DNA from: Escherichia coli 042
GTDB lineage: Bacteria; Pseudomonadota; Gammaproteobacteria; Enterobacterales; Enterobacteriaceae
Reading direction: 5' to 3' (one strand)
DNA: 64,000 nt
NCBI RefSeq assembly: GCF_000027125.1
Contig: NC_017626.1
Under the pieces are notes generated by a model. That model was given only the letters and a program-made list of their open reading frames with translations. It was not told the DNA's origin and ran no database searches. Of the stretch, positions 33,222 to 39,594 are shown in pieces. The position numbers and the translations under genes were made by a program. Position 1 is the first letter of the stretch; each line of letters opens with the position of its first letter.

Positions 33222-34535
<1,314 letters not shown>

Positions 34536-34607: not shown

Positions 34608-36260
<1,653 letters not shown>

Positions 36261-36472
36261 TTAGGTTGAAAAGACGATGGAATAACCAGGACGGGAAAGC
36301 AGTATACCCGAACATGACCTGTGCCACAAACTTTCATTATCCCTCCTCTTCGCCAGCGCACTATTGAAATCAGGAGTGAGAAAATAGCCCCTTTGGGGTA
36401 AATGTTTTTGACGCAAATCAAGCGCTTGTCATTTAAAAAATGACACAAATCGCGCTTGACCACGTAATTCCC

Positions 36473-37264
36473 TTAGAGATCAATTTCCTGCCGTTTTACC
36501 TGTTGCCAGACTTCTTCCATTGTTTCGAGGTCAACACCTGTCATTTCCAGTCCACGCGCGGCAACAATACGCTCCACTTCGCGAAAACGGCGCTCGAATT
36601 TTTCATTGGCTTTTTGTAGTGCAATCTCTGCTTTTGTCCCTAAATGGCGTGCCATGTTGACCGTGGCAAACAGCAGGTCACCCATTTCCTCCTCCAGTTT
36701 AGCCTGGTCGATAACAGCCTGCCGCGCCTCGTACATCACCTCGTCGATCTCTTCGTAGACTTTATCGACTACCGGACCAAGCGTCGTCCAGTCGAAACCA
36801 ACGTTGGCGCAACGTTTCTGGATTTTTTGCGCACGCATTAAAGCCGGTAAACTACGAGGAATATCGTCCAGCGCTGAATGCTGCGCTTTCTGCGCGCGCT
36901 CTTCGGTTTTGATTTGCTCCCAACGGGTAAGCACTTCACTACTGTTTTCGGCAGAACTGTCAGCAAAAACATGCGGATGGCGACGCTCTAATTTATCGCT
37001 AATAGCAGCGCAAATATCATTAAAGTCAAAGCGCCCTTCTTCCTGAGCCATTTGCGCGTAAAACACCACCTGGAATAGCAGATCGCCCAGTTCACCGCGA
37101 AGATCGTCAAAATCTTCACGGGCGATGGCGTCCAGCACTTCGTAGGTTTCTTCAAGGGTGTAAGGCGCAATGGTGGCAAATGTCTGCTCTTTATCCCACG
37201 GGCAGCCGTTTTCCGGGTCGCGCAGGCGCTGCATAATAGTGAGCAAACGGTCGATTTGATTCAT
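36473..37264 (-). CDS. mazG: nucleoside triphosphate pyrophosphohydrolase MazG
   Basis: 263 aa, MNQIDRLLTIMQRLRDPENGCPWDKEQTF... Confidence 0.95.
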   Translation of the reverse strand: MNQIDRLLTIMQRLRDPENGCPWDKEQTFATIAPYTLEETYEVLDAIAREDFDDLRGELGDLLFQVVFYAQMAQEEGRFDFNDICAAISDKLERRHPHVFADSSAENSSEVLTRWEQIKTEERAQKAQHSALDDIPRSLPALMRAQKIQKRCANVGFDWTTLGPVVDKVYEEIDEVMYEARQAVIDQAKLEEEMGDLLFATVNMARHLGTKAEIALQKANEKFERRFREVERIVAARGLEMTGVDLETMEEVWQQVKRQEIDL

Positions 37265-37359
37265 TGAATTGTCCTGAAAATTGCGGGTCTGTCAGGTGTA
37301 ATACCTTCGAGTAAAAGATATCGCTGGATACGGCTGACGCCATATCCAGCTATATAAGA

Positions 37360-39594
37360 CTAACTCCCGTGCAACCGACGCGCGTCGATAACATCCGGCA
37401 CCTGGTTGAGTTTACCCAGCACGCGCCCCAGCACTTGCAGGTTGTAAATCTCAATGGTCATGTCGATGGTCGCCAGTTGCTGTTTGGTATCGCTACGGCT
37501 GGCAACGCCAAGCACGTTCACTTTCTCATTGGCGAGAATGGTCGTGATATCACGTAACAACCCACTACGATCATTAGCCACCACGCGGACCACCAGCGAA
37601 TATCCGGCGGAGTAGCTCTCACCCCATACCGCGTCAACAATGCGTTCTGGCGCATGGGAGCGCAGTTCCGCCAGTTGTTCGCAATCGGCGCGGTGTACTG
37701 AAATACCGCGTCCCTGGGTAATGAAGCCGACAATCTCATCTCCAGGAATCGGCTGGCAGCAGCGCGCGATGTGGTGCATCAGGTTACCGACACCTTCAAC
37801 CACCACACGACCGTTATCTTTACTGCGGTTTTGCGGCGTATAGCTTTTTTGCTGAAGTTGCTTCAGCGCGGCGGCATCCTGCTCTTCGGCACTCGGCTTA
37901 TTAAATTGCGATTGCAGGAAGTTCACCATCTGATTGAGACGGATATCCCCGCCACCAATTGCCGCCAGCAACTCGTCGACATCATTGAAGTTGTAACGCG
38001 GCAGCAGATGTTTTTCTGCTTCTTTCAGGCTGATCCCCAGATGTTCCAGCTCGTCGTCAAGGATTTGCCGCCCAGCCAGAATGTTTTTGTCACGGTCCTG
38101 TTTACGGAACCAAGCGTGAATTTTCGAACGCCCACGGCTGGTTGTGACGTAACCGAGGTTTGGGTTTAACCAGTCACGGCTGGGGTTCGGCTGTTTCTGG
38201 GTGATAATTTCAATCTGGTCGCCCATCTGCAGCTGGTAGGTGAACGGCACAATGCGCCCGCCTATTTTTGCCCCGATGCAGCGGTGTCCGACATCACTGT
38301 GGATGTGGTAAGCGAAGTCCAGCGGCGTTGATCCCGCAGGCAAATCAACAACATCACCTTTCGGCGTAAAGACATACACCCGGTCGTCAAAGACCTGGCT
38401 GCGTACTTCGTCGAGCATTTCGCCGGAATCAGCCATCTCTTCCTGCCACGCAATCAGTTTACGCAGCCAGGCAATCCGGTCTTCATGTCCCGAACGTGCG
38501 CCGCCAGCAGCCGCGCCCTCTTTATATTTCCAGTGCGCAGCAACACCCAACTCTGCATCTTCATGCATCTGTTTGGTGCGGATTTGGATCTCAACGGTTT
38601 TGCCACCCGGCCCCAGAACCACGGTATGAATAGACTGATAACCGTTTGGTTTCGGGTTAGCGACGTAATCGTCAAACTCATCCGGCAGGTGGCGATAGTG
38701 AGTGTGCACTATCCCCAGTGCGGCATAACAATCCTGTAAACGCTCGGCGACAATACGTACCGCACGCACATCAAACAGCTCATCGAAGGCGAGGTTCTTT
38801 TTCTGCATTTTGCGCCAGATGCTGTAGATGTGTTTCGGTCGACCATACACTTCAGCTTTAACGCCTTCAGCTTTCATCTCAGCGCGCAGATGGCCGACAA
38901 ACTCTTCGATATAGTGTTCGCGGTCGAGACGGCGTTCATGCAGCAGTTTTGCGATGCGTTTGTATTCGGTCGGGTGGAGATAACGGAAGCAGTAATCTTC
39001 CAGCTCCCATTTCAGTTGTCCAATCCCAAGACGGTTCGCCAACGGCGCGTAGATATTGGTGCACTCTTTTGCCGCCAGTACGCGTTCATCTTCCGGCGCG
39101 TCTTTTACTTCGCGCAGATGAGCAATACGCTCTGCCAGTTTGATGACCACGCAGCGGAAATCATCGACCATCGCCAATAACATCCGGCGAACGTTATCGA
39201 CCTGTTCGGAGGAAACAGAATCGGTATGCGTCGCTTTCAGCTGGCGGATCGCCGCCATATCACGCACGCCGTGAATAAGGTTAACGACCGACTTACCGAC
39301 GCTCTCACGCAGCACATCTTCGCTGACTACGTTGGCATCCGCCAGAGGGAACAGCAGCGCCGCCCGCAGCGTGTCAATGTCCATACTTAATGTCGAGAGG
39401 ATCTCCACCATCTCAACACCACGCCACAATAACAGACTGGCATCCGGATGCCCCTGCGTCTGTTGCAGACAATACGCCCAGGTTTCGGCTAAGCACTCAC
39501 ACGACTTCTGGCTGGTAATACCCAGACTTGCGATCCATTTTTCCGGATCAAATTCACCAGCCTTATTGATATGTGCACTTCTTACCGCAACCAT
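37360..39594 (-). CDS. relA: GTP pyrophosphokinase, (p)ppGpp synthetase I
   Basis: 744 aa, MVAVRSAHINKAGEFDPEKWIASLGITSQKS...; RelA/SpoT synthetase domain with TGS and ACT C-terminal domains. Confidence 0.97.
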   Translation of the reverse strand: MVAVRSAHINKAGEFDPEKWIASLGITSQKSCECLAETWAYCLQQTQGHPDASLLLWRGVEMVEILSTLSMDIDTLRAALLFPLADANVVSEDVLRESVGKSVVNLIHGVRDMAAIRQLKATHTDSVSSEQVDNVRRMLLAMVDDFRCVVIKLAERIAHLREVKDAPEDERVLAAKECTNIYAPLANRLGIGQLKWELEDYCFRYLHPTEYKRIAKLLHERRLDREHYIEEFVGHLRAEMKAEGVKAEVYGRPKHIYSIWRKMQKKNLAFDELFDVRAVRIVAERLQDCYAALGIVHTHYRHLPDEFDDYVANPKPNGYQSIHTVVLGPGGKTVEIQIRTKQMHEDAELGVAAHWKYKEGAAAGGARSGHEDRIAWLRKLIAWQEEMADSGEMLDEVRSQVFDDRVYVFTPKGDVVDLPAGSTPLDFAYHIHSDVGHRCIGAKIGGRIVPFTYQLQMGDQIEIITQKQPNPSRDWLNPNLGYVTTSRGRSKIHAWFRKQDRDKNILAGRQILDDELEHLGISLKEAEKHLLPRYNFNDVDELLAAIGGGDIRLNQMVNFLQSQFNKPSAEEQDAAALKQLQQKSYTPQNRSKDNGRVVVEGVGNLMHHIARCCQPIPGDEIVGFITQGRGISVHRADCEQLAELRSHAPERIVDAVWGESYSAGYSLVVRVVANDRSGLLRDITTILANEKVNVLGVASRSDTKQQLATIDMTIEIYNLQVLGRVLGKLNQVPDVIDARRLHGS

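Follow-up and report, generated by a model that had tools for sequence, protein, structure and literature searches.

Class II FNR-activated promoters of E. coli, such as those of narG, nirB and pfl (P6/P7), carry an FNR site of the form TTGAT-N4-ATCAA centred near -41.5. For transcript ends in E. coli, Dar and Sorek reportedly described in 2018 that Rho-dependent or leaky termination is followed by trimming of the 3' end as far as a protective hairpin. The spacer between mazG and pyrG was compared with both kinds of element in a 64,000-nt stretch of DNA from E. coli 042, hereafter the window. With the class II FNR promoters, the upstream promoter of pyrG-eno found in this spacer (P2) shares a box that matches the consensus at 9 of 10 positions, in vivo FNR occupancy (Myers 2013), the absence of a -35 hexamer, a -10 element 21 nt past the box and a capped transcription start site (TSS) at about 41.5 (±1.5) nt from the centre of the box; IHF co-occupies P2, as it does narG and nir. 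Unlike at these promoters, the FNR or O2 dependence of P2 is putative, the operon driven is a biosynthetic/glycolytic one (pyrG-eno) for which a further, stronger and constitutive promoter lies 80 nt downstream, and the DNA of the box also encodes part of the upstream gene's RNA stem-loop. That stem-loop resembles other stem-loop 3' ends lacking a U-tract in that a stable hairpin stands 7 nt past the stop codon, the 3' end lies 4-6 nt past the stem base, there is no U-run and read-through into the next gene is partial, but conservation of the mazG structure is only moderate, and Rho dependence and exonuclease trimming are putative here. A hairpin past the stop codon and a small GC hairpin followed by a U-rich stretch are features shared with Rho-independent terminators; unlike in these, the inner helix of the large hairpin is A/U-rich and CAAAAAC follows the stem, and the small hairpin has 4 bp and no mapped 3' end.

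The spacer is an ordinary and largely already-known regulatory region, and all of its components are of known kinds. Taken together, the data make it likely that two overlapping ordinary elements of the minus strand account for it, namely a stem-loop at the 3' end of mazG and a class II-type FNR promoter, P2, for pyrG-eno. The spacer measures 227 nt (36246-36472) and differs from K-12 MG1655 2909667-2909893 by three SNPs and no indels, the K-12 coordinate being the window position + 2873421. A 321-nt query across it matched 5425 of 5426 complete E. coli genomes, as a single copy in each and with mazG and pyrG annotated; one copy per genome in 5425 genomes ruled out a repetitive or mobile element. 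When 36100-36600 was scanned against Rfam at a permissive threshold, only a chance match was returned (UPD-PKib, 15.7 bits against a gathering score of 39, E 4.4). The features are collected in Table 1.

Table 1. Positions of genes and regulatory features from relA to eno, in window coordinates.
Feature	Position	Strand	Basis
relA	37360-39594	-	annotation
mazG	36473-37264	-	ORF and annotation in E. coli genomes
mazG stop codon TAA	36473-36475	-	sequence, ORF 36473-37264
Compound nested inverted repeat, 3'-terminal mazG RNA stem-loop	36411-36465	-	repeats and fold
Imperfect direct repeat, two units 32 nt apart	36409-36428 and 36441-36458	either	11-nt core by repeat search
Match to IHF core consensus WATCAANNNNTTR, AATCAAGCGCTTG	36416-36428	+	pattern match and IHF enrichment (Myers 2013)
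FNR box TTGACGCAAATCAA (+), TTGATTTGCGTCAA (-)	36408-36421, centre 36414.5	both	pattern match and published ChIP
mazG "primary" 3' terminus, after ...GCGUCAAAAAC	36405-36407	-	PMC10687069, supplementary files 4-6
Small hairpin CCCC-AAA-GGGG (CCCC 36398-36395, GGGG 36391-36388)	36388-36398	-	sequence
P2 -10 element TATTTT	36381-36386	-	conservation; 9 nt before capped TSS
P2 capped primary TSS of pyrG-eno (K-12 2909793)	36372, ±3 nt	-	SMRT-Cappable-seq
uORF of 31 codons with SD (ATG 36337-36335; SD GAGGAGG 36348-36342)	36242-36348	-	
P1, main pyrG promoter (-35 TTGTGG 36329-36324; -10 TATACT 36306-36301; start CCC(G) 36295-36292)	36292-36329	-	
pyrG	34608-36245	-	annotation
eno	33222-34520	-	annotation

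The minus-strand sequence TTGATTTGCGTCAA departs from TTGAT-N4-ATCAA at one position. FNR motifs occur in the 64-kb window at chance frequency (three matches against 2.65 expected), so the motif alone is no evidence. Exactly TTGACGCAAATCAA was predicted at pyrG by Myers 2013 (Table S6; U00096.2 2907851, equal to 36408-36421; PWM score 14.73), where it ranks among 187 high-scoring genomic FNR sites, and an anaerobic FNR ChIP-seq/ChIP-chip peak named pyrG was reported at U00096.2 2907811 (Table S5), positive in four data sets and retained in the hns/stpA double-deletion strain (PMC3688515). Table S6 of that study further records IHF ChIP-chip enrichment over the pyrG FNR site, one of the few bound sites so enriched, and Table S7 is also cited for FNR and IHF at pyrG (PMC3688515). 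The IHF core motif is common in the 64-kb window (11 matches against 2.55 expected), so that it is weak when taken alone; at pyrG the core AATCAAGCGCTTG is accompanied by the published in vivo enrichment, with the coarse resolution of ChIP-chip. This core overlaps the upstream FNR half-site, and FNR and IHF therefore probably compete at the pyrG box. The original prediction of a protein-binding site upstream of pyrG-eno holds in that FNR is bound in vivo and IHF is enriched, but the element concerned is TTGACGCAAATCAA, not the 19-bp palindrome that had been singled out; TTGACGCAAATCAA overlaps the left of the "direct repeats" described there. Sites for four other regulators were rejected by eye: TGTGA-N6-TCACA was not matched for CRP, PurR had the half-site ACGCAAAT only, the spacing was wrong for RutR, and ArcA matched at 8 of 15 positions.

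To follow the spacer across the family, mazG loci were taken from 80 species representatives (mazG-pyrG synteny in 75 loci), and the first 100 nt past the mazG stop were aligned, nearly gap-free, for 50 sequences of Enterobacteriaceae sensu stricto. Across these 50 sequences, the mean majority fraction on the minus strand was 0.69 for the sequence after the stop, 0.81 for the 5' arm of the inner palindrome, 0.97 for the TTGATTTRCGTCAA block, 0.99 for the AAACATTT block, 0.78 for the GC-hairpin segment, which is among the more variable blocks, and 1.00 (minimum 0.98) for TATTTT, which is invariant with one exception, TAATTT. The position of the FNR box does not change among the 49 distinct Enterobacteriaceae loci, and wherever the box occurs in the alignment, exactly 21 nt separate its TTGA...TCAA block from TATTTT. 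The FNR block is missing beyond Enterobacteriaceae s.s. (Erwinia, Pantoea, Pectobacterium, Serratia and others). As judged from the alignment, invariant blocks held at a fixed distance around a variable segment are the pattern of a promoter, not of a hairpin. In the locus of one uncultured Enterobacteriaceae MAG (L055:3343-3356), the orthologous position carries the perfect FNR consensus TTGATTTACATCAA; TAATTT replaces TATTTT there, and the upstream half has diverged and has no hairpin (-7.3 kcal/mol).

The start of P2 was predicted at 36373-36374 from the FNR box, TATTTT and the conservation, before the published TSS at 36372 was found. SMRT-Cappable-seq lists TSSs at 2909793 and 2909713 for b2780|b2779 (supplementary file 4; PMC6131387). 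The P2 start comes from this one data set, whose P1 call deviates by 3 nt from other sources, and the -41.5 spacing may therefore be off by a few nt: measured from the centre of the box, 36372 gives -42.5, and with an uncertainty of ~3 nt it ranges from -39.5 to -42.5, that is, about -41.5 (±1.5). The FNR site is thus placed near -41.5 from a mapped primary TSS and overlaps the position of the missing -35 element, which reads AAAAAC and has no -35 match. At 9 nt, the distance from the end of TATTTT to the reported start is rather long. A sigma-70 consensus scan found no promoter-like site at the spacer, as expected for an activator-dependent promoter without a -35 element. A promoter on the plus strand using TTGACG was rejected for want of a -10 element. 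The spacer had been regarded simply as sequence upstream of the pyrG promoter, but it holds a promoter of its own, starting at ~36372.

We propose that the downstream arm of the repeat and the next 45 bp constitute an activator-type promoter, which would be built, in order, from the FNR box TTGAT-TTGC-GTCAA (36421-36408), no -35 element, a variable 13-bp spacer segment with the GC hairpin, TATTTT and a start near 36372. An FNR dimer bound at about -41.5 would overlap the -35 position and contact RNA polymerase directly, in class II geometry, and the A/T tract at the palindrome centre (about -57 to -67) may offer a seat for the alpha C-terminal domain or for IHF. FNR could activate P2 in this way, and its effect may be slight, hidden behind P1 or limited to certain conditions.

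Total pyrG mRNA showed no FNR-dependent change in glucose minimal medium (Myers 2013 Table S9, category 5; PMC3688515); eno was ~2-fold higher anaerobically (Table S12; PMC3688515). The absence of an FNR-dependent change in pyrG mRNA under Myers' conditions would suit a P2 that is real and constitutive, with FNR occupancy silent or repressive and with conservation stemming from an IHF/UP-type architecture, from another factor recognizing TTGA...TCAA or from constraints of the mazG stem-loop; the enrichment of IHF on the same site (PMC3688515) and the invariant AAACATTT beside the box, which is not accounted for by FNR recognition, agree with it as well. We consider this explanation unlikely, since the box is a top-scoring FNR site with peaks in four data sets that persist in the hns/stpA double-deletion strain (PMC3688515), its distance to the -10 element is fixed in all aligned sequences that have it and, together with the missing -35 hexamer, is the expected design of an activator-dependent class II promoter, and the MAG described above has the perfect consensus. 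If FNR does control P2, CTP synthase and enolase would join the oxygen-responsive regulon, and a ChIP peak left in the "no expression change" category would be explained.

The other element of the spacer is the inverted repeat. The 19-bp palindrome of the original prediction is real: TGTCATTT/AAATGACA at 36427-36434/36438-36445 has perfect 8-nt arms (8+3+8, 100% complementary, 3-nt gap), and a second perfect 8-nt inverted repeat, TCAAGCGC/GCGCTTGA at 36418-25/36452-59, which had not been described as such, encloses it. The palindrome had been placed immediately after the mazG stop, but from TAA (36475-36473) it is 7 nt to the beginning of the structure and 27 nt to that of the inner palindrome. 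A lone perfect 8-nt inverted repeat with a short loop is common (23 in the 64-kb window against 6.2 in shuffles); a nested pair is rare (5 of 200 shuffles). In the stem-loop, the outer helix pairs 36465-36452 with 36425-36411, the extension to 36465/36411 including G-U pairs, and the inner helix, which is the palindrome, pairs 36445-36438 with 36434-36427, leaving a 3-nt loop and a 6-nt interior loop. A 68-nt gene-strand RNA was folded with an MFE of -21.6 kcal/mol (z -3.1), which 1 of 200 shuffles equalled. The flanking direct repeats were likewise recovered, as TGACGCAAATC/TGACACAAATC, 32 nt apart (11-nt core, 91%), and by eye they extend to CAAGCGC(TT)GATTTGYGTCA on the minus strand. Of the two units, the downstream one contains the FNR box and the upstream one is a degenerate copy; in part the repeats simply follow from the self-complementary CAAGCGCTTG core.

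The TRS study placed the primary 3' terminus of mazG at K-12 2909826-2909828 in two data sets and showed the palindrome hairpin just upstream (PMC10687069); the terminus directly follows the large palindrome-containing stem-loop, 4-6 nt past the base of the extended stem (36411). The Term-seq table of Adams et al. 2021 contains no 3' end in the mazG-pyrG spacer, and the mazG 3' end is therefore a low-abundance signal from one study (two data sets). In SMRT-Cappable-seq, a relA-to-mazG unit ending before pyrG was reported together with a mazE-to-pyrG read-through unit (PMC6131387). We suggest that the nested repeat folds into a stem-loop of ~55 nt that forms the 3' end of relA-(mazEF)-mazG transcripts, and that part of relA-mazG transcription would continue into pyrG. 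The inner helix is A/U-rich, and the terminator scan did not call the structure; the sequence 3' of the stem is CAAAAAC. Because this sequence has no U-tract, the stem-loop is not a canonical intrinsic terminator and most likely serves as a 3'-exonuclease barrier or as a weak, leaky end-point. A functional overlap of the two elements seems improbable to us; FNR/IHF occupancy or polymerase at P2 could then set what share of transcription of the stringent-response operon relA-mazG stops or continues into pyrG-eno, read-through could in turn occlude P2, and the conserved uORF, present only on P2 and read-through transcripts, would give CTP synthase a second, translationally coupled mode of expression under anaerobiosis.

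The relA-mazG terminator had originally been sought in the small hairpin GCCCC-TTT-GGGG and its U-run, and 3'-end mapping of mazG had been proposed as the check, a terminus elsewhere counting against the assignment. Such a terminus was found, at 36405-36407, ~25 nt upstream of the expected site, and no RNA 3' end follows the small hairpin in the TRS study (PMC10687069) or in the Term-seq of Adams et al.; near K-12 29098xx the TRS study has no 3' end besides 2909826-8. On the minus strand, moreover, the hairpin consists of 4 bp with -5.6 kcal/mol and z -0.28, no better than shuffles, and the terminator scan called it on the plus strand only. The hairpin and the U-rich run are indeed present, CTATTTTC is invariant, and pairing potential is kept in many species (63.5% of cells paired) with a few compensatory changes, for example CCCG...CGGG in Enterobacter soli. 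The invariance of TATTTT is, however, accounted for by its place as a -10 element, with a capped TSS 9 nt further on, and the hairpin block itself belongs to the more variable part of the conserved region. It is thus very improbable that the small hairpin with CUAUUUUCU is the relA-mazG intrinsic terminator and that the upstream palindrome is a separate operator. It is the large nested stem-loop with which the mazG 3' end is associated; the small GC hairpin instead lies within P2, in the stretch that separates the FNR box from the -10 element.

The same segment of the minus strand, TACCCCA-AA-GGGGCTA at 36388-36401, shows by eye a loose likeness to the NarL/NarP 7-2-7 arrangement (5-6 of 7 positions per heptamer); it sits downstream of the FNR box and upstream of the -10 element, a location from which NarL represses some FNR promoters, and other genera do not conserve it. 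A NarL 7-2-7 site in TACCCCAAAGGGGCTA was rejected on account of this partial, unconserved match.

Among the 50 sequences, the outer arms of the nested repeat are perfect in 23 and a stable stem-loop fold (z < -2) is present in 27; the fold is lost in some genera, for example in Citrobacter sp. Cu233 (-9.2 kcal/mol). Pairing was kept in 76.0% of cells against 74.8% in shuffles (5 of 500 shuffles reached 76.0%), and covariation was 0.118 against 0.106 in shuffles, with repeated double changes at pair 11-59 only. Part of this pairing may be incidental to the self-complementary CAAGCGCTTG beside the FNR box. Conservation of the palindrome was the second check attached to the original prediction, and here too the outcome was unfavourable: the inner palindrome is perfect in only 4/50 sequences (three E. 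coli and E. albertii), and its 5' arm diverges in Buttiauxella, Cedecea, Siccibacter and Mangrovibacter. That the 19-bp palindrome TGTCATTT-AAA-AAATGACA is the operator of a dimeric factor (e.g. GntR-type T.GT...AC.A) controlling pyrG-eno or mazG is highly doubtful, for although its 8-bp arms are perfect and stand ~55-75 bp ahead of the P2 start, a frequent location for upstream regulators, the bases of pair C31-G43 fail to pair in 44/50 sequences, the 5' arm is unconserved beyond the Escherichia-Klebsiella-Enterobacter group, chance alone should produce a single 8-nt inverted repeat several times in 64 kb, no regulator with such a site was found, and the only ChIP signals retrieved for the spacer are those of FNR and IHF on the sequence adjoining the palindrome.

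Downstream of P2, the P1 TSS at K-12 2909713 corresponds to window position 36292. A "CCC" initially transcribed region has been described for the E. coli pyrG promoter (PMC12709180), and the Adams pyrG primer begins at CCCGTC, matching the P1 start. The P1 hexamers are conserved, and the spacer between them is variable. Ettwiller 2016 yielded nothing relevant to the spacer, and a literature text search returned nothing on pyrG together with mazG, nor on pyrGp. The uORF has a strong SD, and its start lies between P2 and P1, so that only P2 or read-through transcripts would allow its translation, and its TGA stop overlaps the pyrG ATG as ATGA. Most Enterobacteriaceae retain it, as MKVCG...NFSGSA and with a GGAG-type SD, but it has no ATG in Buttiauxella, Cedecea and Siccibacter; this conservation may largely reflect the embedded P1 promoter and 5' UTR. 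The K-12 RefSeq carries no annotation for it, and supplementary file 3 of Adams 2021 gives "uORF" as the regulatory element for pyrG. A Rho-dependent premature 3' end lies ~36-40 nt inside the pyrG coding sequence, at 36205-36209 on the minus strand (K-12 2909626-2909630), and was reported both by Adams 2021 (Rho score 2.6, "Yes") and by the TRS study (PMC10687069); it suggests attenuation-type control of CTP synthase.

The FNR peak and site, the second TSS and the mazG 3' end were already present in published supplementary tables, and the present analysis adds the assembly of these pieces into one picture, together with the family-wide conservation. Three separate genome-scale observations are thereby joined, namely the FNR ChIP peak "pyrG", the second capped start of pyrG-eno and the 3' terminus of mazG. 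Beyond annotation this is of little importance: the end of the mazG message is corrected, and the small GC hairpin is identified as a promoter spacer.

In several Enterobacteriaceae, the spacer carries an insertion of ~57-125 nt at one shared point, just after ...CTCACTCCTTAT.TTG, between the P2 start and the SD of the uORF; the FNR box and TATTTT upstream and P1 downstream are intact. The insertion measures about +120 nt in seven loci (L014, L017, L024, L025, L039, L045 and L047), +80 in L019 and +57 in K. pneumoniae (L027). We take it to resemble an intergenic repeat of the ERIC/IRU type.

On the other side of mazG, the relA-mazG gap is only 95 nt long (37265-37359), and the mazEF toxin-antitoxin pair, which lies between relA and mazG in K-12, is absent; a mazEF-less relA-mazG junction was found in 1006 of 5426 complete E. 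coli genomes. This gap contains, by eye, an inverted repeat on the minus strand at 37323-37350, GCTGGATA-T-GGC-GTCA-GCC-G-TATCCAGC, followed by GATATCTTTTA. Standing directly past the relA stop, it looks like an intrinsic terminator.
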